A stretch of DNA of 64,000 bases from Eledone cirrhosa. Its lineage: Eukaryota. Positions 1 to 62,906 of this stretch are shown piece by piece. The DNA is taken from NCBI GenBank assembly GCA_964016885.1, contig OZ024748.1, positions 42,718,001-42,782,000 on the forward strand, given 5' to 3'. Within the stretch, counting starts at the first letter, position 1. Every line of letters begins with the position of its first letter. Below the pieces are notes generated by a model, which was given only the letters and a program-made list of their open reading frames with translations, was not told where the DNA came from and ran no database searches. Position numbers and translations under genes: made by a program.

Positions 1-2954
<2,954 letters not shown>

Positions 2955-3154
2955 NNNNNNNNNNNNNNNNNNNNNNNNNNNNNNNNNNNNNNNNNNNNNN
3001 NNNNNNNNNNNNNNNNNNNNNNNNNNNNNNNNNNNNNNNNNNNNNNNNNNNNNNNNNNNNNNNNNNNNNNNNNNNNNNNNNNNNNNNNNNNNNNNNNNNN
3101 NNNNNNNNNNNNNNNNNNNNNNNNNNNNNNNNNNNNNNNNNNNNNNNNNNNNNN
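2955..3154. other. Assembly gap (200 N)
   Basis: Run of N. Confidence 1.
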
Positions 3155-3995
<841 letters not shown>

Positions 3996-10190: not shown

Positions 10191-10436
10191 GTATAAACAA
10201 AGTTTCATACACTTAACATATATGTGCCACCACTGATTTCGGGATCCAGTCATGGCCACCACTGTATATTGGAGGGAGGCACCTTTAAACTTGGCCCTTC
10301 ATTCAGGCACATTTTTGTCCACGGAACAAATACCACAAATACCAATTGGCCGTCTCCAGCCAAGCTTCCTGCAACTCTATTTCTTTTACCGAACCCGGAG
10401 GAATGAATTATTAAACTGCCATTATAAGATTTGAAA

Positions 10437-10625
10437 GGTGGTGAATTGGCAGTATCGGTAGAGGGTCGGACGCCATGCTTTCCAGCATAGTTACGTCCCT
10501 TTACGGTCTGAGTTCAAACCCGTTGAGGTTAACTTTGCCTTTCATCCTTACGGGGTCGATAAAATAAAGTACCAGTAATACACTGGGATAATTGCTGGCC
10601 TTGTGCCAAAAGTAGAAACAATTAT
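10437..10625 (+). mobile_element. OK-like SINE
   Basis: TGGCAGTATCGGTAGAG (A box), GAGTTCAAACCC (B box), TTTGCCTTTCATCC..GGGGTCGATAAAATAAAGTACCAGT. Confidence 0.85.
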
Positions 10626-10860
10626 AAGATTTTACTTCTAGACAGAGAAGGAGGAGAACGAGTGCCATGAGGTGTTTAGTTGATGTAACGTTACTGCTTT
10701 GTTTTACCTGACAACATTAGCATATTTCTAGCTATATTGATCAGCAAGGTCAATATAACAGCTTAAGTTTATATCATTTCAATTATATAATAGAAATGAT
10801 TACTATATTTCTCCACCATCTGTCCACTGCTTATATCTCTGATATATAGTTTAGAAAGAA

Positions 10861-11422
10861 ACTGCTGTCGCGGGTGGCGCCGATTCGATTGACCGCCGAG
10901 TCCGTGGTGACAATCAAGCCGCCTCCCCTCTTCACAAAGGAAGCAAAGGCGGTTTTTCTGTGCGTAATAGCCATGTTGAAAGAGGTTGTTTGGTGGAGAC
11001 GATTGAAAGGTCTGAGGTCAGGCAACTTCCTCTCTGGCCATAATCTGGTCTACTTCTTCCGATATCACTTCGGAAGAAGGATAAGAATGGAGAGAGAGGT
11101 GCTTGGCCACAGACAGTTTATGAAAGGTGGGTGATAGTGGCGAGAATGGTTCGTGTAAATGGGCCTTCTCTGTATACCATCCTGTAGGTAAAGAAGTGAA
11201 GGAGAGGGGAGCACCTTCTCCATGTGCTCCCCAGGCAAAGGATTGCACACTTTTTCGGGGGGGGGGGGGGATGCAACCCCCATCACGTCCCCTCCCTTTT
11301 GAGGTTGTTTTCGATTACTTTCATTTTATACCCTTTTTACTCGGTTTTATGTAAACTCCCCCTTTGTATTTGTCCCTTCTTTTTATGCCTTTATGGTAAA
11401 TAAAGAAATATATCTATCTATA
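10861..11422 (+). mobile_element. Tx1-like LINE, 3' fragment
   Basis: PIRLTAESVVTIKPPP..RYHFGRRIRMERE, 3'UTR, ends AATAAAGAAATATATCTATCTA. Confidence 0.9.
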
Positions 11423-11448
11423 TCCCAAATGTAAATATCTGCTGGATA

Positions 11449-11755
11449 TTGAGTGGCTTTATCAACTTTGATGAAGACACAATAATTTCGGTAGGGAAGT
11501 CCTCCAGGAGTATATTTAACGGTACTAGCTTAGAAGTTCTGGTCCAAATGAGGCCAGAACATATAGCTAGAATCCCACAACGTGTGCCTCTGGATGGAGT
11601 TTCCTACATAAACATTTCTGTTGAGGGTAGGCGGCCTTCATGTTACCACTGTTTAAGCAGTGGTCACCTGAAGGCTTACTGTCCTCAGTTAACTAAAAAA
11701 AAAAAGTGGCACTACTGCCAACACCCAAAACAACAACACAACCACCACCACCACC

Positions 11756-11842
<87 letters not shown>

Positions 11843-12621
11843 CGCAAACACAACCAAAACAAGAACAACAAACCAACCTGCAAGCACAGTCCCACCCAAC
11901 CCCACTCCACCACTGCAAAAACACCCACAAACACAACAGCTCCCCAAAACAAACCCCTTCCAAATAACACAGACACCACAACGGACGAGGCCCCCACATC
12001 ATCACCAAGTGATGATGAGGGAGAGCCTCTCCGTTCGAAAGGAAAGAAGAAAAGACACCACAAGAACAAACAAACAACAAACATCACTACAAACATACAA
12101 CCAACAACACAAACATTACAAACAAACAAACAAACACCCCCCCCCCCCCGTCCCGAAAACAAAACCACGACATCACTCCAAACACAAACACCTACAACAA
12201 AACGAAAGCTCCCACAAGAACAACAGACAAAACCACCGCAACACAACAATACATAAACAGTAAAAACAAAACTGTAATGGAGATCAACTCAAACGACCCT
12301 TCGGTGAAAACCGAAGGGAAAACTTTTTCGAACTGTGTTGACAAACCTAATTTAAAGATGATTAGGGTCCCTACGGACACCTATAAGTCTTTAAAGGAAA
12401 ACTTTCCTAAGGGTGTGGGTAATCCTTGTGTTAAACCCATTAACCGCGTCCTTTTAAAAAGTTTCCCCACCCTCACCCCAGACACACCCACCCCACCAAA
12501 CATCTCCGTCCCCACCCCGCCGGAAACCACCACCCAGACAACTCCTCTAACACCCCCATGGAAACCGTGCGGCCTGATCCCCGGGAGAGGAAGAGGTGAG
12601 TGTTTTCTTCTCCTCCTTTAA
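11449..12621 (+). pseudogene. Tx1-like ORF1 (gag-like CCHC knuckle; Q/T/P-rich low-complexity tail with (CAA)n)
   Basis: CX2CX4HX4C at about 11641-11682; (CAA)n at about 11755-11840; frame shifts. Confidence 0.8.
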
Positions 12622-12636
12622 CTTTTCAGAACCAAC

Positions 12637-15600
12637 ATGGCCAATATAAGAGTTGGGGTGTGTGAATGTACGCGGCCTGGAGATGCCCTGGAAACAGGGC
12701 AAACTCTTAAACGACCTCAGGTCGCACAGTATGGATGTAGTAGCCATTTGCGAGTCCAGGATCCACAGCGAGCGACAGCTGGCCCCCATCTTCGATGACT
12801 TTGAGATCTACACACCTCTCTGTCAGACGAGAGGTTGGGACAGGGTTGCCGTCTTGCTGCGGAAACACCTGGACCTCGTAACACAGACGGTACATCTGGA
12901 CCCGGAGGGTCGACTGTTGGTCCTAGACGTTGACGGTAGTGAAGGTGGAGCCTTCAGGCTGGTGGCGGCATATGGCCCATCCGGGACACCGCGGCCAGAC
13001 TTCTTCAAACGTCTAGAGACTTTTCTGGGAACGTCCCGCTCTCTGCTGTTAGTGGGGGACTGGAATGGAATCCTAGATGCACGTTGGGACTATGTGGGAG
13101 CATGTCCCGATAGAGAGGGGTGTAACAGCCTCAAACAGTTAATCCGCCAATTTCAAGTGGCCGATAGATATCGACTAGATTTTCCGACTGTGCCACTGTG
13201 GACGTGACCAACCACAGCGGAACATCCAGATCGTACCTAGATAGGTTTCTAGTTAGAGTTAGTGATAGGGACACGTTAAGCTGTCCACAAATGTTTATGG
13301 TTGCCTATTCAGATCACAAACTAGTGACCTGCTTAGTCAACCTTGATAGAACCCATAGACAGGGACCCGCCTACTGGAAGCTGAACTTGTCGTTACCAAC
13401 ATGCAAAGCCAACAGTAGACGGCTTAGCACTTTAGTTAAGCAACACTTGACGGGGGCCATTGTCAACAACAGATGGTGGTACTCTATCAAGAGGGCAGTT
13501 AGATTAGACTCGATAGGTTTTAGTAACGAATTAGTGTTAGATAGAAATAGAACCGAGAAAGAACTGGGAGATAAAGTAGAAGAGGCAATTAGAAGTGGCA
13601 ACGTAGCCAGCGTGCTAGCGGCGAGAACGGCCTTGGACCAGTTCTTCGACGCAAAGCACGAAGGCTGCGTTGTCAGAAGCAAAATACGTGCTCTGGGAAA
13701 CGAGGGAGCCAAAGCTGTTAGCTGGGCTAGAGTGACAGAGGCGAAAAGTGGCAACAAGTCCACGATTCGGTCTTTGAAGGACCAAGACGGACGCGTGATA
13801 CGTGAGCCGAAGCAGATGTGCGCGGCCTTTCAGCGGCACTTTGCTCAACTGTTCGGGCAGGGCGGCAACGGGAGGGGCTATGGATTTCAGTCCATACCTC
13901 GACTGCCTACCGCGACACTCGGACAGCGATGCGAAGTTCTGCGAAAGGCCGATTTCGGCCACTGAGATAGGGGACGCGCTGAGCCAATGCGGCAAACGCA
14001 AATCTCCAGGTCTCGATGGTCTACCCTACCAATTTTACGTAGCAATGCCGGACTTATTCTCCGGTCTCCTGGAAGCGGTCTACTGCAACTGGCAACAGAA
14101 CGGGAGAATTCCCAGTTCTGTGACCGGGGGCGTAGTCACACTTATCAGGAAGGACGAGAATAAGGGGTATGACATAGGCACCTTCCGGCCCATAACTCTG
14201 CTAAACACAGAGTTACAGATTTTGGCAAAGGTGTTGGCAAAGAGGCTGGCGCTTGTCGTCGGGAACCTAGTGGGAGAAGCGCAGACTTGCGCAATCCCGA
14301 CCAGGTCCATACACGACAACCTCCACCTCATGCGATACATCATAGAGAGGGTAGGGTGTAAACCCGGCTTCGGTGGGGCCCTGATCAACTTGGATCAGTC
14401 TAAGGCTTTCGATAGGGTTGACCATCGTTACCTGGATGCGTTGCTCGAGGCCGCAGGCTTCGGACCCGTGTTCAGGGGCTGGATTGCTGCAATGCATAAC
14501 AGCAACATCTGCTCAAGGGTCAAGGTGAACGGCTACCTCTCGGAGCCGTTCCATATCACGCGATCCATTCGACAGTGATGCCCTCTCTCCTCCCTTCTGT
14601 ACGTATTGACTCTCGAGCCACTACTGCAGAAGAGGGAGCTATTGCAGGGCATCCCTCTGGAACCGGGACTGCGGAAAGCGGCGTCGGCCTACGCCGACTA
14701 CGTGACAGTAATGGTGTCGAGCGCCTCGCAAATTGAGGAAGTCCGCACCTTACTGAAGAATTACGAAAGGTTCACAGGAGCGAAGCTGAACCGGGACAAG
14801 TCCATCGGTTTGCAACTCGGATCGTGGAGGCAGACCGATGCCTTTCGATGGCGTCGTCGGACGCTGGATGGAAGGACCAGTAAAGCTGCTCGGGGTCTGG
14901 TTTGGTCCGGACCTCCAGGTGGAGAACTGGAACGAGGTGACGGCCAAGGTGTTTGCACTCACCCAGAAGTGGGCCGAGTGCAAACTATCCTTGAAAGGTC
15001 GAGCGGAGGTGGCGAACATTTTTATAGCGTCCGCCATCTACTACCGCTTGACCGTCGTGCCTTGTCCAGCCAAAACGCTCACCAAAATGGAGCACGCGCT
15101 CTTCCAATTCCTTTGGAAGAGCCGAGCTCCTTTGGTGAGAGATCCAACTGCTGCCAACACCCTTCCAACGGAGGGCTGGGGATGCCGTGGCTGACGATGT
15201 GCAAACACGCGCTCAGGCTTCGGCATCTCTACGTATTCCTCACCGGACAACCGGTGTGGGCCCCGTTCGTGAGGCGAGCCGTCCCACGACTCGTCTCGCT
15301 GACCGAGCTGCAGTCCTGGGTCAAGCAAAGACCGAGGAAAATGGGCGACTGGCACATCGAATGTGCTCAGGCGCTCACAGCCCTCTGGCAGGCGGACCCG
15401 ACGATCAGTGGAGACTCCACTTCGTCATTCTATAGAGGGTTGATCCGCAGCAATTGCGACGACGTGCTCGGTGAAACTCTAGGCGTAGAGGAAGACGAAC
15501 AGGCCAGTCTGTTCGGTAGGACCTTCCGCCCGGGACCGATGGACAACTTCCAAAAGTCTCTGGCCTGGCAGTGCTACCCAGGAGCTCTACCAGTTCGAGA

Positions 15601-16066
15601 CAAGCTCTACAAACATCGGCGCCCGGGCAGGGACCCTGCAAAAAAGGTCTGTCCGAGGTGCGTGCGAGACGAAGAAACCATCGCGCACGCATTCATACAC
15701 TGCCCGGGCGCCACCGACCTGTGGGGCTATGTAGAACGACTATTGTCGCGTGTGGGACCAATCCGGTTGACCACCGAGTCCATTGTCATGATCAAACCGC
15801 CACCCTCCTTCAAAAACGAAGGAGAGGCGGTTTTCCTTTGTGTGATAGCTATGGCGAAAGAGGTTGTATGGTGGACAAGTTTGAAAGGGCTGAGGTCAGA
15901 CACCTTTCTCTCCGGCCAACAACTGATTCTTTTTTTCAAATACCACTTTGGAAGAAGAATCAGGATGGAGAGAGAGGTGCTGTACCCCAGCAAGTTTTAT
16001 GAAAGGTGGGTGAAAGTGGCGAGAATGGCCCGAGTGAATGGGCCTTCTCTCTATATCAGCCTGTAG
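12637..16066 (+). pseudogene. Tx1-like ORF2 (APE-RT-zf), several frameshifts and a stop
   Basis: ATG in CCAACATGG at 12637; ORF pieces 12653-13207, 13198-13965, 13802-14578, 14606-16066, 14838-15194. Confidence 0.92.
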
Positions 16067-16913
16067 GTTGAGGAAAAGAAGGAGGAGAGGAAAGGAGTAC
16101 AAACTCTTCGTACTCCTGGAGATGAGGGTTGCACATTTTTGGGGAGTATGTGTTACCCATATGAACTGTCTCCCCCTATTAGGGAAAATCGACTAATTTT
16201 TAAATCGTATTTGTGATAATATTTTATACGTTTTTATTGTATGTAAACTTCCCCCTTTGTATTTGTCCCCTTCTTTTGTGCCCCTGTGGCTAATAAAGAA
16301 ACATATCTATTTCCTCCTTCCCTACTCTTTCTCTCCTCTCTCTTCTCTCTTTCTTACATTTTTAGAACGAGTATTTTAGTTGAGAGTTATATGGGTTACA
16401 TAGATATAGATTAGTGTTGTTATGAATGTTAATATTGTTTGTGTATTGTATCACAGAGAGTAACCGAAGCAGTCCAAGGGAATGTTGTAGCAAATATCCT
16501 CATAAGGCATTACGACATTTTTTGATATATAATTTATTTACAAAGATGAGAAGTAGAGTTAGCGGTGAAGATATGTCTTAAGAAATGAAAAACAAATTAA
16601 GATGTTATAAAAGAATACGCAGACCGATGGCTGGAGTTAGAAGCCACGGCCGCGGTAATTGTTCGATAGCTACATTTTGGAAAGTTTGTTGTGCAAAATC
16701 AAGAGATGTTTACCTTCTGGTGACGAGATTCAAAGAGAGAGATTTTCGAAGAGAAGCGGAAATTTTTCCCTTTCGGCGGAAGTTGAAATACATTTCCCTA
16801 CGCTGGTAGCGATTGGCTGAACTGAGCCAAACAACGTACGGAGAATGTATTCAAGAGCCATCAGATTGTAGGTCACTACACATTCATCAATAATTGGTAA
16901 TTCACTACACGTA

Positions 16914-20294: not shown

Positions 20295-20862
20295 ATCTTA
20301 TTTTTTGTTATATTTTATTTTATTTTTATATATTGTTATTGCCTCCTCCTTATTGAGGACGCCTTGTTTTGTAAACTCCCCCCATTGAACTTGTCCCACT
20401 TTTGATGCCCTGGTGACAAATAAAAGAAACATATCTATTTATCTATCTATCTATAGTTTCTTCCGATATCATTTCGGAAGAAGGATCAGGATGGAGAGAG
20501 AGGTGCTGCACCCCAGCCGTTTCTATGAAAGATGGGTGAAAGTGGCGAGAATGGCCCGTGTGAATGGGCCTTCACTCTACATCAGACTATAGGTGAGGAA
20601 GATGAAAGACCAAGGGAGCACCCCTTCTCTGTGCTCCTGAGGAGAAGGGTTGCACACTTTTTTCGGGGGGATGTGCGACCCCCCAAGGCGCCTCCTCTCT
20701 ATTGAGGATTTTGTTATAAATTTTATTTTTTGTTATATCTTATTTTATTTTTATATTTTGTTATTGCCTCCTCCTTATTGAGGACGCCTTTTTGTGTAAA
20801 CTCCCCCCTTTGTACTTGTCCCACTTTTGATGCCCTAGTGGCAAATAAAAGAAACATATCTA
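20295..20862 (+). mobile_element. Two tandem Tx1-like 3' fragments
   Basis: 3'UTR-only piece ending AATAAAAGAAACATATCTAT (about 20440), then FFRYHFGRRIRMERE..LYIRL* plus 3'UTR (20455-20862). Confidence 0.88.
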
Positions 20863-21373
20863 TAAATACAATGCTTAATGATTTCAGCAAGATTATTATC
20901 TAGGACATTGCTATTTATATTTCGAAGGTGTATCTTCGACAAACTCCAACACACACGACGTACCACATGGCTTCTATCAGATAATTTATAAAAAGAGAAA
21001 ACAAATATATTTAGAAAACAATAAACTACCCGTCACCAGGTGCTTGTTAAATTAAACATATTTACAATTGCAAAATTACATCTTACCTTTCTTGGTTGTC
21101 GTCCGAAATATCCAGCACCTGACGTTGTTCAGTGTTCTAGGTAAATGTTAATGTGAGAGCAAGCTGGAGTAAAAGACTTTCTTTAAAAGATAACATAAAC
21201 AATAAGGTTTGTGTTTTAAATAGGTTTACAAGATGATTTTAATGGTTTTATATGACATGTAACTGATTAAAGATTCTTGTGCCAACTTCCCGATATTAAA
21301 CTCACAAGAATATTAAATGCCATGTAAAATAACCATAATTCTTCTGTGTAGGCGTCTTTCTTTATTCTGTACA

Positions 21374-22606: not shown

Positions 22607-22761
22607 CTTACAAATGATACATTTCCTATTGGTACAGTGGGTTTTCTTAAAAGGGTAGGTTTTGCTGATCAGGGATTTTATGGATTTTATCCCTGATCAG
22701 CAAAACCTACCCTTTTAAGAAAACCCACTGTACCAATAGGAAATGTATCATTTGTAAGGTG

Positions 22762-25700
22762 CCAGGCACCCATTTTCTGTCTTCGCTTAACTCAGGACTG
22801 CAGCTCTGTTAGTGAGACAAGTTGTGGAAGAACTTGTCTCACAAACGACAGCCACACCGGTTTACCGGTCAGGAATACCTGGAGATGACGTAGCCTCAGC
22901 GCATGTTTGCGCATCATCAACCACGGCATACCCAGTCCTCCGTTAGAAGGGTGTTGACAGCAGATGGATCTCCTCACCAATGGAGCCTGTTTCTTCCAGA
23001 GGAACTTAAAGAGTAGGCGTTCCATTTTGGTAAGGTATTCGCGGGGGCAAGGCACGACTGTCAAGCGGTAGTAGATGACGGACGCTATGTAAGTGTTCGC
23101 CACCTCCGCTCGACCTTTCAATGAGAGTTTGCACTCAGCCCACTTCTGGGTGAGTGCAAAAACCTTTGTCGTGACCTCGTTCCAGTTCTTGTCCACCTGG
23201 AGGTCTGGACCGAACCAGACCCCGAGTAATTTCACCGGTCCTTCCGTCCAGCGTCCAACGACACTGTCGGAAGGCATGGATTTGCCTCTCCATGTGCCGA
23301 GTTGCAAACCGACAGACTTGTTTGGGTTTAGTCTTGCTCCTGTCAACGTTTCGTATTCCTGTAATAGATTGCCGATTACCCTGATTTCCGAGGTTTTCGA
23401 CACCATTACGGTTATGTCGTCGGCATAGGCTGACGCTGCTTTCCGCAGTCTTGGTTCGATCGGGATGCCCTGCAACAGCTACAATTTCCGCAGTAACGGC
23501 TCGAGAGTCAGTACATACAGAATGGAGGAGAGAGGGCATCCCTGACGGATGGAACGCATGATTTGGAATAGTTCTGATAGGTAGCCATTCACCTTGACTG
23601 CCGAGCAGATGCTGGTGTGCATGGCAGCGATCTAGCCTCCGAAGATGGGACCGAAGCCGGCCGCCTTGAGAACTGCTTCCAAGTATTGATGGTCGACCCT
23701 ATCAAATGCCTTAGACTGATCTACATTGATCAGATCCCCACCAAAGCCAGGTTTACACCCTACCCTCTCTGTGATGTATCGCATTGGGTGGAGGTTGTCG
23801 TATATGGACATGGTCGGGAGTGCACATATTTGGGCTTCCCCTACCAGGTTCTCGACGACAAGCGCCAGCCTTGCTGCTAATACCTTGGCCAAAATCTTTA
23901 ACTCTGCGTTGAGCTGAGTTATGGGCCTGAAATTGCTTATCTCATCCCCCTTGTTCTCATCTTTCCTGATCAGCGTTACTACGCCTCTGCCTACAGAACT
24001 GGGAACCTCCCGTTCTGCTGCCTGTTGCAGTAGACCGCTTCGAGGACGCCAGAGATAAAGCCTGGCATGCCTATGTAAAACTCATAGGGTAGACCATCTA
24101 AACCGGGTGATTTGCGTTTCCCGCAGCGGCCTAGGGCATCTTCTATTTCGCCCGCTGTGATCGGCCTTTCGCAGCTCTCCGCATCCGTGCTCGAGAGTCG
24201 CGGTACGCCGTCGAGGTAGGAGCTGAAGTCCATCACCTCGCTCGATATACCGCTTTGCCCGAACAGTTGTTCAAAATGCTGCTGGAAGGCCGTGCACATC
24301 TGCTTGGATTCAAGTATAATGCGTCCATCTTTGTCTTGCAAAGACCGAATTGTGGATTTGTTGCCACTTTTCACCTCTGCCACTCGGGCCCAGCTAACAG
24401 CTTTGGCTCCCTCGTTTCTTAGAGCACGTTCTACTTCTGACAATACAACCTTCGTGTTTCACGTTGAAGAACTGGTCTAGTGCCGTTCTCGCTGCTAGCA
24501 CGTCAGCTGTACTGCCATTCCTAAGTGCCTCTTTTATTTTAGCTACCAGTTCCTTTTCAGTTTTTTTTTTTTCTAAAGCTACTTCCTTGCTAAAGGCTAT
24601 CTATTCTATTCTAATTGCTCTCTTGAGAGAGCTCCACTACCTGTTGTTGACGATCGCCCCCGTCAACTGGTACTTAACTAAGGTGCTAATCCGTTTACTG
24701 TAGGCCTTACGAGCCGGGAGCGACATGTTTAGCTTCCAGTATCTGGGTTCCTGTCTATGTGTTCTATCAGGGTTGACTACGCAGGTGATTAATTTGTGGT
24801 CTGAATAGGCAACCATGTGCATTTATGGACAGCTTAATGTTTCCTTATCATTCTGTCTAATTAAAAATCTATCTAAATACGATCTAGAAGACCCAGTGCG
24901 GTTGCTCCATGTCCACAGTGGTGCACTTGGGAAGTCTAGTCGATATCTATCAGCCAGTTGGAATTGGCTGATGAGATTTTTTAGGTTATTACACCCCCCT
25001 CTATCATCACAAGCTCCTACATAGTCCCAACGTGCGTCTAAGATGCCATTCCAGTCCGCCGTTAACACTAAGGAGCGAGACGTTCCCAGGAATGGCTCCA
25101 GACGCTTGAAGAACTCTGGTCACGATGTCCCAGTCGGGGCATATACGGCCACCAGTCTGAAAGCTCCACCTTCACTACCATTCACGTCCAGGACCACCAG
25201 GCTGCCCTCCGGGTCCAAGTGAATCGTCTGTATTTTGAGATCCAAGTTTTTTCGAAACAGAACAGCAACTCCCCCTCCACCTCCTGGCTGACAGAGAGAT
25301 GCGTCGATCTCAAAATCATCGAACATGGGGGTTAGCTGCTGCTTGTCGTGAATCCTGGACTCGGTGATGGCTATCATATCTATACAATGTGACCTGAGAT
25401 CATTTAAAAGCTGGCCCTGTTTCCAGGACATGCCTAGGCCACGAACATTCAAACATCCAGCTTGTATAGTCGCCATGTTGGTGAAGAAGAGTTAAGGAGA
25501 GAAAAGGCAGGAACACTTACCTTTTCGTTTCCTGGAGGTCGGGTTGTTCGATCTCCATGTCCAGATTGGTGGTGTTTGGGGAGGGAGGGAATCCTTTTAG
25601 CAGGACACGGTTAAGGGGCTTTTGGCAAGGGGTCCACATCATGTGGGAAGTTCTCTTTTAAAGTTTCATACTGTAGGGTTGTTACCCTGATAAGTTTGAG

Positions 25701-27390: not shown

Positions 27391-28013
27391 CGAAAATATT
27401 TTGGATGTTTTTGCCCTGAGCGGCACGATATTTTGAGAGACTGACCAGATGAAAATTTGACGTGTCACTCCCTCTACAAATTGGTATAAAAATAAAAGTT
27501 CACAATGACGAATTTCTAAAAAAAATTTAAACAAAACTTACCGAGCAAGTTTAACACATGTGTCCATCCCAGAGATAGATATAGATAGATAGATAGAGAG
27601 ATAGATAGATAGAGAGAGTAGATGATGAAGAAATATATATATATAGTATTTGATCACACACACACACACACACCCCTCTCTCATATATATATATATATAT
27701 GAGAGAAAGGGGGAGGGGTGATCAAATACTAAGACAGGTATGTCCACATTTTTAAATGATTTATTCATTTTTCTTGTTTCTTTCTAAACTATATATCAGA
27801 GATATAAGCAGTGGACAGATGGTGGAGAAATATAGTAATCATTTCTATTATATAATTGAAATGATATAAACTTAAGCTGTTATATTGACCTTGCTGATCA
27901 ATATAGCTAGAAATATGCTAATGTTGTCAGGTAAAACAAAGCAGTAACGTTACATCAACTAAACACCTCATGGCACTCGTTCTCCTCCTTCTCTGTCTAG
28001 AAGTAAAATCTTA

Positions 28014-28205
28014 TAATTGTTTCTACTTTTGGCACAAGGCCAGCAATTATCCCAGTGTATTACTGGTACTTTATTTTATCGACCCCGTAAGGATGAAAGG
28101 CAAAGTTAACCTCAACGGGTTTGAACTCAGACCGTAAAGGGACGTAACTATGCTGGAAAGCATGGCGTCCGACCCTCTACCGATACTGACAATTCACCAC
28201 CTTTC
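28014..28205 (-). mobile_element. OK-like SINE (paralogue of 10437-10625)
   Basis: Near-identical sequence and flanks. Confidence 0.85.
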
Positions 28206-28524
28206 AAATCTTATAATGGCAGTTTAATAATTCATTCCTCCGGGTTCGGTAAAAGAAATAGAGTTGCAGGAAGCTTGGCTGGAGACGGCCAATTGGTATT
28301 TGTGGTATTTGTTCCGTGGACAAAAATGTGCCCGAATGAAGGGCCAAGTGGTAGCAGATACATGTTAAGTGTATACTATATATTTGTTTATACTATATAT
28401 ATATATTTGTAGTATGGTTGCTTGGATGCGTCCATAGGCGGTATGCCGGTTGAGCACTCTATGCTCCTTCGGAGCAGAGTATAATAATATGGAAAACAAA
28501 GAGGATTTGCTTCGAAATTATTAG

Positions 28525-28617
28525 ACGTATCTGAGGAACTTGCGAATCCAGAATCAGGTTCGATCCACAAATAGATCGCATCTAGAGCTGTTCGCCGGAG
28601 AAACAATTGTAATACGT
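28525..28617 (+). ncRNA. Type I hammerhead ribozyme with extended helix II
   Basis: ACGTAT-CTGAGGA-[long stem]-GAAA-CAATTG-TA-ATACGT. Confidence 0.8.
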
Positions 28618-28661
28618 AATAAATCGTGTTCCGATGCATCACTGATTCTTCGTTTTCCATG

Positions 28662-28741
<80 letters not shown>

Positions 28742-30447
28742 AAAAAAGAGGAAAAAAGAGAAAATCGAAAATGCAACTGGAGTCTTTTTTTTTTATATAT
28801 ATTTATTTGGTTCCTTTACCGGTTTCGCAGTTCTTCTGCTTTTCGAAAGTAGAATTGAGATGGAGGGTTTGTGGTTTTTCTCACACCTGGTTAGTCTTTG
28901 AATGTTACTTCTGTTTTATATGGAAAAAAGTGGCTCGAAATGCTAGGTTTTTAGAGAAGTAATTTGGTTGGTTGATGTCTGTCTTGTGAATAAGTATAAT
29001 AAATTTCGCGCCAGTTCTCGTTACAAAGTTCTTATTATATTTGCCTTCAAAAAAAGGGGGGCTCAGGTTGTTTTTTCATATATGAGTGAAGTTTGGTTGG
29101 TTGATGCAGTCACGTGAATAAACACATCAGCTTTCGCGCCAGTTTGTGTTTGAATTTCTTTTCTCTTAAAAAAAGGGTGGCTCACGAAGGCTTTTTTTTT
29201 AAATGTAAATTGATTGGTTATAAATGAAATTATGACTGTCACGTGAACAAGAACATTAAATTTCGCGCCCGTATTTTGGAATTTTTTTTTTTTTTGTAGC
29301 CATTTAGAGATTTTGTGCCAAACAAAAGATAATGGTCAAGAAAAACGAGATGGGGAGAGTTGTTCTGGTTCAGTGAATATGGCTGGTGTGCTCGGTTGTC
29401 AAAATTCAGACTTCTATTGAAATAAATAAAGTAGAGATATGTATGTTTATTTGTGTGCTGGTGTGTGTGTGTGGGGGGGGGGGTTATATGTGTGTGTGGG
29501 AGTATGGTTAGCATGTTAAGATGGAGAGAATATATATATATATTTGTGTGTGTGTAGGAAAATGATTCCGTTAGTAGAAATGGGGGAGTGAGTTATGTGT
29601 GGGGGGAGGTTTAGCATGTTAAGGTGTTAGAGTATTAACGTATGTCAAGGTTTATTTAGTTCTGGTTTTTATTTTCTAAAGTAGAAGGTGTTATGTGTGT
29701 GTGTGTATGTATGTGTCTGTTTGGATAGTTAGCATGTTATGGTGTTGACATAATGTATATTAAACTATATTTAATGCTGGTCTATATTTTTGAATAAACA
29801 TATTTTCCTTATTTATTAGTATTTGTTCTGTTGTATTGTCAGCGCAAAGATAAAATGGGAAGACTTAGAATTTGGGTAAATTTAATGCACTTGTTCACGT
29901 GTGAACCAGAACAACTCTCTCCATCCCCTTTTCTTGACCTTTATCTTTTGTTTGGCACAAAATTCTCTAAATGGCTACAAAAAAAAAAATAAATAAATAA
30001 AAATTCCAAAATACGTGCGCGAAATTTAAAATACTTGTTCACGTGACAGTAATAATTTCATTTATAACCAATCAAATTACATTTATAAAAAAAGCCTTCG
30101 TGAGCCACCCTTTTTTTTTAAGTAAAAAGAAATTCAAACACAAACTGGCTTATTCACGTGTGCTTATTCACGTGACTGCATCAACCAACCAAACTCACTC
30201 ATATATGAAAAAATAATCTGAGCCGCCCTTTTTTTAAGGCAAATATAATCCGAACTTTGTAACGCGAACTGGCGCGAAATTTATTATACTTATTCTCATG
30301 ACAGTCATCAACCAGATGTGAGAAAAACCACAAACCCTCCATCTCAATTCTACTTTCGAAAAGCAGAACTGCGAAACCACTAAAGAACCAAATAAATATA
30401 TTTAAAAAAATAAAGACTCCAGTTGCATTTTCGATTTCCTCTTTTTT

Positions 30448-30527
<80 letters not shown>

Positions 30528-30570
30528 CATGGAAAACGAAGAATCAGTGATGCATCGAACACGATTTATT

Positions 30571-30663
30571 ATGTATTACAATTGTTTCTCCGGCGAACAG
30601 CTCTAGATGCGATCTATTTGTGGATCGAACCTGATTCTGGATTCGCAAGTTCCTCAGATACGT
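30571..30663 (-). ncRNA. Hammerhead ribozyme (mirror copy of 28525-28617)
   Basis: Reverse complement of the same fold. Confidence 0.78.
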
Positions 30664-30986
30664 CTAATGATTTCGAAGCAAATCCTCTTTGTTTTCCATA
30701 TTATTATACTCTGCTCCGAAGGAGCATAGAGTGCTCAACCGGCATACCGCCTATGGACGCATCCAAGCAACCATACTACAAATATATATATATAGTATAA
30801 ACAAATATATAATATACACTTAACATGTATCTGCTACCACTTGGCCCTTCATTCGGGCACATTTTTGTCCACGGAACAAATACCACAAATACCAATTGGC
30901 CGTCTCCAGCCAAGCTTCCTGCAACTCTATTTCTTTTACCGAACCCGGAGGAATGAATTATTAAACTGCCATTATAAGATTTGAAA

Positions 30987-31175
30987 GGCGGTGAATTGTC
31001 AGTATCGGTAGAGGGTCGGACGCCATGCTTTCCAGCATAGTTACGTCCCTTTACGGTCTGAGTTCAAACCCGTTGAGGTTACCTTTGCCTTTCATCCTTA
31101 CGGTGTCGATAAAATAAAGTACCAGTAATACACTGGGATAATTGCTGGCCTTGTGCCAAAAGTAGAAACAATTAT
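30987..31175 (+). mobile_element. OK-like SINE (paralogue)
   Basis: Same sequence and flanks as 10437-10625. Confidence 0.85.
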
Positions 31176-31471
31176 AAGATTTTACTTCTAGACAGAGAAG
31201 GAGGAGAACGAGTGCCATGAGGTGTTTAGTTGATGTAACGTTACTGCTTTGTTTTACCTGACAACATTAGCATATTTCTAGCTATATTGATCAGCAAGGT
31301 CAATATAACAGCTTAAGTTTATATCATTTCAATTATATCATAGAAATGATTACTATATTTCTCCACCATCTGTCCACTGCTTATATCTCTGATATATAGT
31401 TTAGAAAGAAACAAGAAAAATGAATAAATCATTTAAAAATGTGGACATACCTGTCTTAGTATTTGATCTCC

Positions 31472-31533
<62 letters not shown>

Positions 31534-32255: not shown

Positions 32256-35200
32256 GATAGATATGTTTCTTTATTAGCCACAGGGGCATAAAAGGGAACA
32301 AATACAAAGAGGGAAGTTTACATACAATAAAAACGTGTAAAATATTATCACAAATGCAAATTAAAAATTAGTCGATTTTCCCCAATAGGGGGAGACATTA
32401 CATATGGGTAACACATACTCCCTAAAAATTCGAAGGGTCCCTGCCCGGGCGCCGATGTCTGTAGAGCTTGTCTCAAACTGGTAGAGCTCGTAGGTAGCAC
32501 TGCCAGGCCAGGGACTTTTGGAAGTTGTCCATCGGTCCCGGGCGGAAGGTCCTACCGAACTGACTGGCCAGTTCGTCTTCCTCTACGCCTAGAGTTTCAC
32601 CGAGCGCGTCGTCGCACTTGCTGCGGATCAACCCTCTATAGAATGACGAAGTGGAGTCTCCACCGATCGCCGGGTCCGCCTGCCAGAGGGCTATGAGCGC
32701 CTGAGCACATTCGATGCGCCAGTCGCCCATTTTCCTCGGTCTTTGCTTGACCCAGGACTGCAGCTCGGTCAGCGAGACGAATCGTAGAGGAATACGTAGA
32801 GATGCCGAAGCCTGAGCGCGTGTTTACACATCGTCAGCCACGGCATCCCCAGCCCTCCGTTGGAAGGGTGTTGGCAGCAGTTGGATCTCTCACCAAAGGA
32901 GCTCGGCTCTTCCAAAGGAATTGGAAGAGCGCGCGCTCCATTTTGGTGAGCGTTTTGGCTGGACAAAGCACGACGGTCAAGCGGTAGTAGATGGCGGACG
33001 CTATAAAAGTGTTCGCCACCTCCGCTCGACCTTTCAAGGATAGTTTGCACTCGGCCCACTTCTGGGTGAGTGCAAACACCTTGGCCGTCACCTCGTTCCA
33101 GTTCTCCACCTGGAGGTCCGGACCAAACCAGATCCCGAGCAGCTTTACTGGTCCTTCCATCCAGCGTCCGACGACGCCATCGAAAGGCATCGGTCTGCCT
33201 CCACGATCCGAGTTGCAAACCGATGGACTTGTCCCGGTTCAGCTTCGCTCCTGTGAACCTTTCGTAATCCTTGAGTAAGGTGCCGACTTCCTCGATTTGC
33301 GAGGCGCTCGACACCATTACTGTCACGTAGTCGGCGAAGGCCGACGCCGCTTTCCGCAGTCCCGGTTCCAGAGGGATGCCCTGCAATAGCTCCAACTTCC
33401 GCAGTAGTGGCTCGAGAGTCAGTACGTACAGAAGGGAGGAGAGAGGGCATCCCTGTCGAATGGATCGCGTGATATGGAGCGGCTCCGAGAGGTAGCCGTT
33501 CACCTTGACCCTCGAGCAGAATGTTTCTGTTGTGCATTGCAGCAATCCAGCCCCTGAACACGGGTCCGAAGCATGCCGCCTCGAGCTCCGCATTCAGGTA
33601 ACGATAGTCAACCCTTTCAAAAGCCTTAGACTGATCCAAGTTGATCAGGGCCCCACCGAAGCCGGGTTTACACCCTACCCTCTCTATGATGTATCGCATG
33701 AGGTGGAGGTTGGCGTGTATGGACCTGGTCGGGATTGCGCATGTCTGCGCTTCTCCCACCAGGTTCCCGACGACAAGCGCCAGCCTCTTTGCCAACACCT
33801 TGGCCAAAATCTGTAACTCTGTGTTTAGCAGAGTTATGGGCGAGAAGTTGCCTATGTCATCCCCCTTATTCTCGTCCTTCCTGACTAACGTGACTACGTC
33901 CTTGGTCACAGAACTGGGAATTCTCCCGTTCTGCTGCCAGTTGCAGTAGACCGCTTCCAGGAGACCGGAGAACGAGTCAGGCATTGCTACGTAAAATTCG
34001 TAGGGTAGACCGTAGAGACCTGGAGATTTGCGTTTGCCACATTGGCTCAGCCCGTCCCCTATCTCAGCGCCTGAAATCGGCTTTTCGCAGAACTACGCCT
34101 CGTTGTCCGATAGTCGTGGTAGGCATTCGAGGTATGGACTGAAATCCATAGCTCCTTCGGGCGCGCCGCCCTGCACGAACAGTTGAGCCAAGTGCCGCTG
34201 AAAGGCCGCACACATCTGCTTCGGCTCACGTATCACGCGTCCGTCTTGGTCCTTCAAAGACCGAATCGTGGACTGTTGCCACTTTTTGCCTCCGCACGCT
34301 AACAGCTTTGGCTCCCTCGTTTCCTAGAGCATGTATTTTGCTTCTGACAACGCAGCCCTCGTGCTTTGCGTCGAGGAACTGGTACAAGGCCGTTCTCGTT
34401 GCTAGCACGCTGGCTACGTTGCCACTTCTAATTGCCACTTCTACTTTATCTACCAGTTCCTTCTCGGTCCTATTTCTATCTAACGCTAATTCTTTACTAA
34501 AAACTAACGAGTCTAATCTAACTGCCCTCTTGAGAGAGTAACACCATCTGTTGTTGACAATGGCCCCTGTCAAGTGCTGTTGAACTAAAGTGCTAATCCG
34601 TCTACTATAGGCTTTGCATGTCGGTAACGACAAGTTCAGCTTCCAGTAGCCGGGTCCCTGTCTATGGGTTCTATCAAGGTTGACCATGCAGGTCACTAGT
34701 TTGTTATCTGAATAGGCAACCATGAACATTTGTGCACAGCTTAACATGTCCCTATCCTTATTTCTAACTAGAACCATATCTATGTACGATCTAGGTGTTC
34801 CGCTAGGATTAGTCCACGTCCACAGTGGCACAGTCGGAAAATCTAATCGATATCTATCGGCCAGCTCAAATCAGCTGATTAACTGTTTGAGGCTGTTACA
34901 CCTCTCTCTATCGGGACATGCGCCCACATAGTCCCAACATTCATCTAGGATTCCATTCCAGTCCCCCACTAAAAGTCTCTAGACGTTTGAAGAAGTCTGG
35001 CCGCGGTGTCCCGGATGGGCCATATGCCGCCACCAGCCTGAAGGCTCCACCTTCACTACCGTCAACGTCTAGGACCACCAGTCGACCCTCCGGGTTCAGA
35101 TGTACCGTCTGTGTTACGAGGCCCAGGTGTTTCCGCAGCAAAATGGCAACCCCGCCCCCACCTCCCAGCTGACAGAGAGATGTGTAGATCTCAAAGTCGT

Positions 35201-36185
35201 CGAAGATGGGAGCCAGCTGTCGCTCGCTGTGGATCATGGACTCGCAAATGGCTACTACATCCATTCTGTGCAACCTGAGGTCATTTAAGAGTTTGCCCTG
35301 TTTCCAGGGCATCCCCAGGCCGCGTACATTTACACATCCAACTCTTATATTGGCCATGTTGGTGCTGGAAAGTTAAAAGAAGTGGAAAAGAAAACACTCA
35401 CCTCTTCGTCTCCTGGGGACCAGGCTGCACGATTTCCATGGGGGTGTTAGTGGGGTTGTCTGGGTGGGTGGTGGTTTCCGGCGGGGTGGAGACGGTGATG
35501 TTTGTTGGGGAGGGGTGTATGATGGTGTGGGGGTGTCTGGGGTGGGGGTGTCTGAGGTGAGGGTGGGGAAACTTTTTAAAAGGACGTGGTTAATGGGTTT
35601 AACACAAGGATTACCCACGTCCTTAGGAAAGTTTTCCTTTAAAGACTTATAGGTGTCTTAGGGACCCTAATCATCTTTAAATTAGGTCTGTCTACAAAGT
35701 TCGAAAAAGTTTTCCCTTCGGTTTTCACCGAAGGGTCGTTGGAGATGACCTCCATTAAAGTTTTGTTTTTACTGTTTATGTATGTGTAATGTTCTTGTGT
35801 TGCGGTGGTTTTTGTCTGTTGTTCTTGTGGGAGCTTTCGTTTTGTTGTAGGTGTTTGTGTTTGGAGTGATGTCGTGGTTTTGTTTTCGGGACGGGGGTTT
35901 TTTATTTGTAATGTTTGTGTTGTTTGTGTTGGTGGTTGTATGTTTGTAGTGATGTTTGTTGCTTTTTTGTTCTTGTGGTGTCTTTTCTTCTTTCTTTTCG
36001 AACGGAGAGGATCTGCCTCATCGTCACTTGGTGATGATGAGGGGGCCTCGTCTGTTGTAGTGTCTGTGTTATTTGGAAGGGGTATGTTTTGGAGTGGGGT
36101 TGGGTGGGACTGTGCTTGGAGGTTGGTTTGTTGTTCTTGTTTTGGTTATGTTTGCGTGTTGTTGTTGATGTTGTTGTTGTTGTTT

Positions 36186-60221: not shown

Positions 60222-62906
60222 TTCTTTTTATTTGCCACCAGGGTGTCAAAGAGTGGGACAAGTACAATGGGGGGGGGGTTTACATAATAAGGCGTCCTCA
60301 ATAAGGAGGAGGCAATAACAAAATATAAAAATATAAAATATAACAAAAATAAATTGAATAACAAAATCCCCAATAGGGAGGAGGAGCCTTGGGGGTTCGC
60401 ACACACCCCCGAAAAAGTGTGCAATCCTTCTCCTCAGGAGCACAGAGAGAGGGTGCTCCCTTGATCTTTCATCTTACTCACTTACAGTCTGATGTAGAGT
60501 GAAGGCCCATTCACACGGGCCATTCTCGCCACTTTCACCCATCTTTCATAGAAACGGCTAGGGTGCAGCACCTCTCTCTCCATCCTGATCCTTCTTCCGA
60601 AATGATATCGGAAGAAACGGACCAGTTGTTGGCCAGAGAGAAAGGTGTCTGACCTCAGTCCTTTCAGACGCGTCCACCATACAACCTCTTTCGCCATGGC
60701 TATTACGCACAGAAACACCGCCTCTCCTTCGTTTTTGAAGAGGGGAGGCGGCTTGATCGTTACAATAGACTCGGTGGTCAACCGGATCGGTCCCACCTGT
60801 GACAGCAGTCGTTCGACATAGCCCCACAGATCCGCAATGTCCGAGCAGTGTACCAATGCGTGTGCAACGGTTTCCTCGTCGCACACGCATCCGGGCGCCC
60901 GTGTCTGTAGAGCCTTTCTCGAACGGTAGCACTGCCAGGCCAGGGACCTCGGGAAGTTATCCATAGGTCCCGGGCTGAATGACCTACTGAACAGGTTGGC
61001 CAGTTCGTTTTCCTCCATGCCTAGAGCTTCTCTGAAGGCGTCGTCGCACCTGCTAACCACCAGCCCTCTATAGAATGACGAGGTGGATTCTCCACTGACA
61101 GCCGGGTCCGCCTGCCAGAGAGCCGTGAGCGCCTGGGCACACTCGGTGTGTCAGGTGCCCAGTTTTCTCGGTCTTTGCTTGACCCAGGATTGCAGCTCGG
61201 TGAGTGAGACGAGTCTGGGAAAGGCTCGCCTCACAAACGGGGCCCACACCGGTTGACCGGTGAGGAATACCTGGAGGTGCCGTAGCCTTAATGCGTGTTT
61301 ACGCATCTGTAGCCACGGCATCCCCAGCCCTCCTTTCGAAGGGTGTTGACAGCAGATGGATCTCCTCACCATAGGAGCCCGCTTCTTCCAAAGGAATTGG
61401 AAGAGTGCGCGCTCCATTTTGACGAGCGTTTCCCTTGGGCAAGGCACGACGGTCAGGCGGTAGTAGATGACGGACGCTATATAAGTGCTCGCCACCTCCG
61501 CCCTACCTTTCAGGGACAGTTAGCACTCGGCCCACTTCTGGGTCAGTGCAAACATCCTGTTCGTTACCTCACTCCAGTTCTTCTCCACCTGGAGGTCTGG
61601 TCTGAACCAGACCCCGAGCAACTTCACCGGGCCCTCCGTCCAGCGCCCGACGACGCCATCGGAGGGCATCGATTTGCCCCTCCACGTGCCGAGTTGCAAA
61701 CTGATCGACTTGTCCCGGTTCAGCTTAGCCCCTGTAAACATTTCGTACTCCTCCAGTAAAGTGCCGATCGCTCCGATTTCCGAGGCCGTTGACACCATTA
61801 CTGTTACGTTATCGGCGTAAGCCGACACCGCTTTCCGCAATCCCGGTTCCAACGGGATACCCTGCAACAACTCCAACTTCCGCAGCAGTGGCTCTAGAGT
61901 CATCACATACAGAAAGGAGGAGAGAGGGCACCCTTGTCGGATGGACCGCGCGATTTCGAACGCTCCGAGAGGTAGCCGTTCACCTTGACTCTAGAGCAGA
62001 TGCGGCTGCTGTGCATGGCAGTGATCCAGCCCCTGAAAACGGGTCCGAAGCCTGCCACCGCTAGCACCGCATCCAAGTAACCATGGTCGACCCTATAGAA
62101 CTCCTTAGATTGATCCAAGTTGATCAGGGCCCCACCAAAGTCGGGTTCGTTCCCAACCCTCTCTATGATGTATCGGATGAGGTGGAGGTTGTCGTGGATG
62201 GACCTGGACGGGATAGCACATGTCTGCGCATCTCCCACCAGGTTTCCCACGACAAGCGCCAACCTCTTTGCTAGCACCTTGGCCAAAATGTAACTCTGTA
62301 TTTAGCAGAGTTATGGGCTTGAAATTATTTATATCGTCCCCCTTGTTCTCGTCCTTCCTCACTAGCACAGGGAATTCTCCCGTTATGTTGCCAGTTGCAG
62401 TAGATCACCTTGAGGAGATCGGGGAACAAGTCCGGCATAGCTAGATATAGTTCGTATGGAAGACCATCGAGACCCGGGGATTTGCGTTTGCCGCATTGAC
62501 TCAGCACGTCCTCTATCTCAGCGGCTAAAATCGGCTCCTCGCAGGACTTCGCCTCCTTGTCCGAGAGATGCGGCAGGCCGTCGAGGTATGGACCGAAGTC
62601 CACTTCCCCAACCGGCTCCCGCCCCTTCCGAACAATCTGGCAAAGTGCTTTTGAAAAGCCTCGCACATCTGCTTAGGTTCAAGGATCACCCGTCCATCCT
62701 GATCTTGCAAAGACCGGATAGTGGATCTACTCCCTCTTTTGGCTTCTGTCACGCGGGCCCCTCGTTTCCCAGAGCACGTATTTTGCTTCGGACGATGCAG
62801 CCTTCGTGTTTCGCGTCGAAGAACTGGCCCAGGGCCGTTCTCGATGCTAGCACTCTGGCCACGTCGCCGCTTCTAATTGCCTCTTCTACACTATCTACCA
62901 ACTCCC
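60222..62906 (-). mobile_element. Tx1-like LINE copy F, 5'-truncated, with TSD
   Basis: RT and C-terminal motifs; TTTAAGATAACT duplicated at 60210-60221 and 62907-62918. Confidence 0.95.

Follow-up and report, generated by a model that had tools for sequence, protein, structure and literature searches.

The stretch analysed here (the window) comprises 64,000 nucleotides of the Eledone cirrhosa genome (C8:42,718,001-42,782,000 of genome G000) and carries several decayed copies of one non-LTR (long terminal repeat) retrotransposon family, in which a consensus 5' splice site, or donor, lies at the junction between the two open reading frames (ORFs), ORF1 and ORF2. A host gene has its nearest named relatives in Octopus bimaculoides (70%) and Argonauta hians, in line with an octopod as the likely host. 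When the motif AGGTRAGT was searched on both strands of the window, 7 occurrences were found, and 4 of these precede the only four CCAACATGG. The distance from the GT to the ATG of ORF2 is 41 nt for the site at 12596 (+) and 44, 44 and 45 nt for the sites at 25520, 35401 and 50297 (-), respectively. This confirms the coordinates given in a preliminary description of this DNA, which had placed AG|GTRAGT 41-45 nt upstream of the ORF2 start in all four copies that retain the junction. The TRA of the motif doubles as the ORF1 stop codon in all four copies, and ORF1 ends in ETKR followed by the stop in subfamilies A, B and C (the letters A-H, T and U are our own family labels).

Copy 1, of subfamily A on the plus strand, is the only one in which the junction and the end of ORF2 are both retained. 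Its ORF1 (11425-12599) is 5'-truncated and frame-broken, contains a (CAA)n expansion and is ended by the TGA at 12597-12599. The donor AG|GTGAGT (12594-12601, GT at 12596) overlaps this stop, and its usage was seen in a sister subfamily A copy on C3. The pyrimidine-rich spacer between the two ORFs (12596-12636) is the predicted 5' arm of a long-range helix. ORF2 follows at 12637-16066, with AP endonuclease, reverse transcriptase (RT) and zf-RVT domains (Pfam PF03372, PF00078 and PF13966; tblastn) and with frameshifts and stops. The purine-rich start of the 3' untranslated region (3'UTR; 16067-16110) is the predicted 3' arm of the helix, the duplex of the spacer with 16064-16123 being predicted at -40.0 kcal/mol, and the poly(A) signal AATAAA at 16292-16297 is followed by a short TATC-like tail. 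The other three copies lie on the minus strand and have all lost the end of ORF2: copy 2 (subfamily B; donor AG|GTAAGT at 25515-25522, ATG 25476, ORF2 match stopping at 22759), copy 3 (A-like; donor AG|GTGAGT at 35396-35403, ATG 35357, ORF2 end and helix partner deleted near 32430) and copy 4 (subfamily C; donor AG|GTAAGT at 50292-50299, ATG 50252, ORF2 match stopping at 49553).

The architecture of the family can be read from the intact copy L156, which has a 5'UTR of ~220 nt, an ORF1 of 638 aa, a spacer of 41 nt, an ORF2 of 1145 aa and a 3'UTR of ~230 nt with AATAAA and then a (TATC)n tail, without LTRs. Its ORF2 matches PF03372 (2e-12), PF00078 (6e-27) and PF13966 (4e-6), and human L1 ORF2p is its best solved relative (E 7e-52). 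With an ORF2 of AP endonuclease (APE), RT and zf-RVT, a separate ORF1, a poly(A) signal and a simple-repeat tail, the element is an L1-group non-LTR retrotransposon. The ORF1 match to zf-CCHC (E = 0.24) was under the curated cut-off. Regarding the target, (TATC)n precedes 12/12 full 5' ends and follows 17/20 3' ends, and copies insert both in (TATC)n and in each other's tails, giving tandem arrays. This microsatellite targeting fits the Tx1 clade, as described in the part of PMC4494074 that was consulted. In an RT tree of 28 of 30 domains (P0090 and P0091 were omitted, the match being too short) and with no curated Tx1 reference among them, the element groups with relatives of ~40% identity (support 83/96). 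Nine intact ORF2s are mutually 99.6-99.9% identical. In the case of subfamily D, an open ORF2 of 1150 codons was present in many of the 150 matches listed, several as tandem pairs of ~5.9 kb, and this subfamily looks active at present. One further copy (L166:2985-3032) is 5'-truncated four bases ahead of the donor, so that (TATC)n runs directly into it.

Because the four copies of the window are homologous, chance was assessed across families. GTRRGT was present 15-55 nt before the ATG at 28 of 30 loci chosen by the ORF2 start alone, compared with 21 of 2,040 control windows (40 nt each) from the same loci, and this is the unbiased figure for conservation. All 11 family representatives keep G|GTRRGT, with positions -1, +1, +2, +5 and +6 identical in all of them; the representatives were anchored on the motif, so that the invariance of +1, +2, +5 and +6 holds by construction, while the presence of the motif in each family and the G at -1 do not. 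Single copies in which the motif is changed or lost (L303, L308, L393 and L400) are not among these representatives. The same sequences are 51-95% identical in pairwise comparison of fourfold silent sites, which are invariant at 40 of 160 positions, and the spacer varies from position +8 onward and in its length (25-47 nt).

The codon phase of the donor is 2 in eight representatives, 1 in D and U and 0 in H, the reading frames of H and U being taken from decayed copies. Upstream of the donor, 641 codons are open in D (phase 1) and 229 and 325 in two copies of H (phase 0). As the donor occurs in three codon phases, the overlapping ORF1 stop cannot account for the motif, and the families in phases 0 and 1 ruled out the simple explanation that the motif merely is this stop. 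Altogether the comparison supports a donor conserved beyond the need for a stop codon. Folded locally, the sequence around the donor showed no significant structure (z = -1.0). A micro-intron of 34-37 nt, running from the donor to a CAG that lies 7 nt ahead of the ATG, would be in frame in A. It was rejected: B, C, E, F, G and T do not have this CAG, D would be joined out of frame, and the 40 hits of a pattern search for ORF1 ends included no A-type DNA copy without the segment. In one H copy (L301 + 2550-2600), ORF1 reads in frame into ORF2, with 259 open codons past the donor, probably by a single point change.

Use of the donor in RNA was seen in run X4, which consists of contigs only (88 million letters, library type not on record, contig depth not being expression). 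A contig of 542 nt tracks the end of ORF1 and departs from it exactly at the donor. The 27 letters that follow are unique in the genome (allowing at most 1 mismatch) and lie directly after a pyrimidine run and a TCACAG acceptor; they begin an exon that encodes a Sulfotransfer_2 domain (E 9e-41). Upstream of this exon and on the same strand lies a subfamily A copy with its GT at C3:34,982,285, so that C3:34,982,284 is joined to C3:35,004,768 and a GT..AG stretch of 22,483 nt is skipped. All 10 checked variants of the contig and its rare AAAAG exon end are present in this C3 copy, compared with 4-6 of 10 in 29 other A copies. A GT..AG splice from the motif was thus observed in one contig of one run, and the donor is a functional U2-type 5' splice site.

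In the joined RNA, ORF1 stops at once and the host frame has no start codon, so that the join looks like exon capture rather than a fusion protein. The spliced copy is flanked by tandem carbohydrate-sulfotransferase paralogues (C3:34,974,538-34,975,686 and 35,004,768-35,005,874; L177, L211-L214). A native first exon of the second sulfotransferase was not found within 200 kb, and for this reason the LINE (long interspersed element) may have captured or displaced the 5' end of this gene.

Splice-like joins were also detected in genomic DNA. A pattern of ORF1 ends that do not have the donor next gave 40 hits, 30 of which were viewed, while 10 were read from the matched letters alone. In 22 of these copies (19 and 3), the donor is joined to sites following a CAG in the ORF1 end of another element. 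In the larger group (19/40), an A-like exon end is joined exactly at the donor to the stretch that follows CAG in the parental F family (3/3 parental contexts). In the smaller one (3/40), the same exon end is joined to a site 76 nt upstream in register, after a C-rich tract and CAG (6/6 parental contexts). A reading of the GAAGAG|CCCGA hits as a plain subfamily was rejected, since they are donor-joined hybrids. The hybrid with the longest ORF1 side, L361, has an ORF1 closest to the A, D and G types. For ORF2, the two hybrids tested both share 91-93% identity with F and 78-81% with the other families. The remaining 18 hits are small indels at the donor together with L240, a C-type copy (L240:1500-1540) whose ORF1 end is joined to ORF2 +84, one base off a clean TAG|G splice, and which was not counted as a join. 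Moreover, L377, L393 and L400, compared with L379, have differing ORF1 ends and spacers and a common T-type 3' end, pointing to further module swaps.

The two out-of-register joins at the exact donor and after CAG are best read as read-through RNA that was spliced from element to element and then copied back, while a template switch on AG microhomology would also fit as the origin of the DNA joins. One could go further and propose that the donor is kept by this very process, read-through splicing in (TATC)n arrays connecting the promoter and ORF1 of an upstream element to the ORF2 of a downstream one, so that 5'-truncated neighbours are rescued and ORF1 modules swapped. The hybrid family with its exact donor-to-CAG join, A/D/G-like ORF1 and F-like ORF2, the second type of join from the same donor in three places and the insertion of elements within each other's tails are all what such a process would give. 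We nevertheless consider it quite improbable as the reason for conservation: each of the two joins uses a different, cryptic acceptor, no more than two types of join were found, which seems too rare to hold the motif invariant alone, and the AG microhomology suits a template switch as well.

The preliminary description had also proposed that ORF2 is an intron, its stop serving as acceptor. The acceptor-like TAG|G was present as stated at 16066, 11187 and 20592. The latter two sites belong to 3' fragments of other subfamilies and not to copies bearing the junction: one at 10866-11409 (+), immediately 5' of copy 1, with an ORF2 end, a stop at 11185-11187 and a 3'UTR, and one at 20457-20868 (+) with its ORF2 stop at 20590-20592. 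In a fuller form, ORF2 would be a regulated intron spliced from the donor to the AG of its own stop to give an ORF1-only mRNA, with the helix tuning the frequency. Several features would agree with this idea. ORF2 ends in TAG in 10 of 11 representatives, the hypothetical join brings back a stop after 0-2 codons in six of them (D, E, F, G, H and U), and in A, D, E and G the stop ranks among the top 3-4% of ORF2 YAG sites by the pyrimidine content of the sequence ahead of it. Furthermore, a spliced RNA without ORF2 would be expected to leave few retrocopies, and there is a precedent in the Ty1/Copia element EVD, which splices a Gag-only RNA (PMC5580714, consulted in part).

The searches for such a product gave a different picture. 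In subfamilies A-D, no DNA copy joining ORF1 to the 3'UTR was found versus 2,008 unspliced junctions (F, H, T and U lay outside this search); the retrocopy searches in A-D returned 1 unrelated hit and another 2 hits that were both unspliced mutants. No donor-to-3'UTR join was found in E and G either, where 30 of 31 hits were viewed and proved to be three element junctions altered by point changes or deletions and otherwise unrelated sequences. The absence of retrocopies in these families counts against the intron, as other joins from the same donor were retrocopied. A donor-to-stop joint in RNA was not among the 15 of 195 joints listed from four runs (contigs only) or among the loose ends listed, which is weak evidence, the contig tables being partly listed.

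The joins that were found point in the same direction. The stretch skipped in X4 contains the intact ORF2-stop TAG|G of the C3 copy, together with its helix partner and AATAAA, and the hybrid join likewise passes over the ORF2 stop of the upstream element. In family T, whose copies were picked by likeness to one TAA|A end, ORF2 ends in TAA|A in 37 of 38 copies while GTAAGT is kept in 23 of 27 junction copies; a weak AAG|GT lies 7 nt beyond the ORF2 stop. In A, B and C, the hypothetical join would add a tail of 10 to more than 25 codons. The pyrimidine run before the stop encodes GPSLY, and the restored stops derive from the G/T-T-G-A start of the 3'UTR, which would also be constrained by the predicted helix. 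This helix would pair the intron with the downstream exon and mask the donor. Finally, bicistronic LINE RNA already gives an excess of ORF1p. An intron from the donor to the ORF2 stop is therefore not supported, and we regard its regulated form as unlikely; what held of the preliminary description is the conservation of the donor and its use in splicing, seen in the X4 contig and, as splice-like joins, in DNA.

A better account of the acceptor-like context may be given by the predicted helix between the spacer and the 3'UTR, which would explain why a pyrimidine tract follows the donor and a purine tract the ORF2 stop. The spacer is predicted to form a duplex (-20 to -44 kcal/mol) with the first ~45 nt past the ORF2 stop. 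Each spacer pairs best with the 3'UTR of its own family (mean residual -5.4 kcal/mol, permutation p = 1e-4), so that the arms of the predicted helix appear to co-vary by family. With dinucleotide shuffles, at most 6 of 200 were as stable in 8 of 11 families, family F being represented in this test by the hybrid copy L362. When the whole loop of 3.6 kb was folded, the minimum-energy structure contained 35-40 spacer-3'UTR pairs in all three families tried (D, T and C). No Rfam family matched at its gathering score. In this prediction, the helix closes ORF2 into a loop of 3.4 kb and covers the donor; coverage is complete in B, C, T and E but poor in A and D.

It could also be argued that the helix is the functional part, serving re-initiation at ORF2 or cis-preference in the closed loop, and that the donor motif would arise as a by-product where an Arg codon, a stop and the pairing coincide, with accidental splicing. 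The motif does read as Arg and stop (AGG-TRA/TAG-GT) in 8 of 11 representatives, and the helix would bring the ORF2 start beside the ORF2 stop. There is also the case of human L1, where a conserved donor is retained through overlap with a RUNX3 site (PMC5860796, in the portion consulted). The phases of D, U and H, in which the motif persists without being the stop, speak against such a by-product. In addition, all three stop codons occur, only in forms that preserve GTRRGT, the spacer from +8 onward and its partner strand are free to vary, and the donor is kept in A and D despite its poor pairing. Overall, we find this explanation improbable.

The explanation that we prefer is that the conserved donor would be a docking point for U1, masked later by the predicted helix so that the RNA ends unspliced at its own poly(A) signal. 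We give it a probability of about 0.47, just short of even. U1 would bind the donor once ORF1 has been transcribed and would keep the intronless RNA from ending early. As soon as the 3'UTR is made, it would pair with the spacer, and the helix would hide the donor from U1, allowing polyadenylation without splicing of the full-length RNA. If masking fails or U1 stays, transcription would run on and the donor would be joined to the next usable acceptor, either a host exon or a cryptic CAG at the ORF1 end of the next tandem element. An element-to-element splice would give an RNA with ORF1 of one element and ORF2 of the next, which could retrotranspose and found a hybrid family. Both the RNA join and the hybrid join bypass the element's own end, as this model predicts. 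As an alternative to the intron, the preliminary description had suggested that the site binds U1 to suppress premature polyadenylation, and this idea seems to fit best once a masking helix is added.

Several observations weigh against the U1 docking model. The predicted helix is weak in E, F and H, where 28, 84 and 36 of 200 shuffles, respectively, were as good. The C3 copy was spliced despite an intact helix partner (-34.0 kcal/mol), which implies that masking is incomplete. The splice itself comes from one contig of one run with unrecorded library type, its host side of 28 letters is under the 31-letter rule for bridging, and the copy concerned is 5'-truncated. ORF2 holds 0-2 AATAAA/ATTAAA per family, so that there would be little downstream to protect, and the 0-10 in ORF1 lie upstream of the donor. 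In six metagenome loci of L1/Tx1-like elements (~27-30% identity), the motif is absent at the ORF1 stop, and the donor is consequently not clade-wide. Lastly, the U1 and poly(A) steps are ones that we infer.

A broader proposal would be an RNA switch in an active LINE lineage, of a kind that the literature searched does not report for non-LTR elements. In it, a U1 site at the stop of ORF1, together with a helix of 3.4 kb range, would choose between the full-length end and onward splicing, the spliced route swapping ORF1 modules between tandem elements, founding families and capturing host exons. We put this forward tentatively, its chances as a whole being somewhat less than even. Its interest lies in a young, high-copy lineage that retains a strong and demonstrably spliced donor through three frame phases, while LINE RNAs are thought to avoid splicing because it costs retrotransposition (PMC5860796, in part). 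It would offer a testable route for the swapping of LINE ORF1 modules, and the copies that bear the donor, at least 2,008 in number, would be a source of LINE-host chimeric transcripts. The predicted pairing would be a natural example of an RNA helix of very long range that gates a splice site. If true, exon capture could take place genome-wide from thousands of copies. The near-identical intact copies make reporter work feasible.

Some other features of the window are given for completeness. A 5'-truncated copy at 60400-62900 (-) consists of the 3' part of ORF2 only. At 72-3208, open frames of 900-1040 codons without a Pfam match run on both strands and enter an N gap at 2955-3154; they are probably satellite. 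A tandem array with a period of 99 bp and units of ~95% identity occupies 55243-56831. Repeats of 97-99% identity at 10289-10862, 27701-28892 and 30310-31487, in both orientations, represent a young element of another kind, and an open frame of 435 codons without a Pfam match lies at 46200-47507 (+).

Human L1 is known to have splice donors and spliced retrocopies (PMC5860796), whereas a donor at the ORF1 stop that is helix-gated and splices outward was not found in the open-access literature, as far as the sources extended. This literature gave no account of the feature in Tx1 or cephalopod LINEs and no paper combining Tx1, retrotransposon, intron and splice donor; in the main text of PMC13282606 the string 'splic' is absent (its supplement and Repbase entries were outside the scope). 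The closest counterparts in habit are the Tx1-clade LINEs that target microsatellites, Kibi in (TC)n and Koshi in (TTC)n. In the part of PMC4494074 consulted, these have, like the present element, two ORFs, APE, RT and zf-RVT domains and microsatellite insertion, here in (TATC)n; unlike them as described there, our element has a donor at the ORF1 stop and a predicted helix between spacer and 3'UTR.

In the case of human L1, the accessible portion of PMC5860796 describes a conserved and rarely used donor in the 5'UTR, the SpIREs as retrotransposed spliced RNAs that are dead ends, and the suggestion that RNA structure may hide the donor from U1. A conserved, rarely used LINE donor and the ability of spliced RNA to retrotranspose are thus shared. 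In contrast to the 5'UTR donor of L1 with its RUNX3 site, the donor described here lies at the end of ORF1 and splices outward, and one join has spread as a multi-copy hybrid family.

Regarding the proposed mechanism, the closest parallels are found outside the LINEs. Foamy virus has a major donor at which U1 prevents polyadenylation, and polyadenylation becomes possible when an RNA structure masks this donor (PMC3694450, consulted in part). The U1 docking model would work in the same way, with the difference that the foamy virus switch belongs to a retroviral LTR and a local structure, while here a non-LTR element and a predicted helix of 3.4 kb range are involved. In EVD, as far as described in the excerpt of PMC5580714, U1 both enables splicing and blocks premature termination, and a conserved donor lies at the end of the structural gene, as in our element. 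EVD has one Gag-Pol frame and requires the splice for Gag, whereas the LINE is bicistronic, with no internal acceptor shown. On this model the element would work like the foamy virus and EVD controls while being a member of neither.

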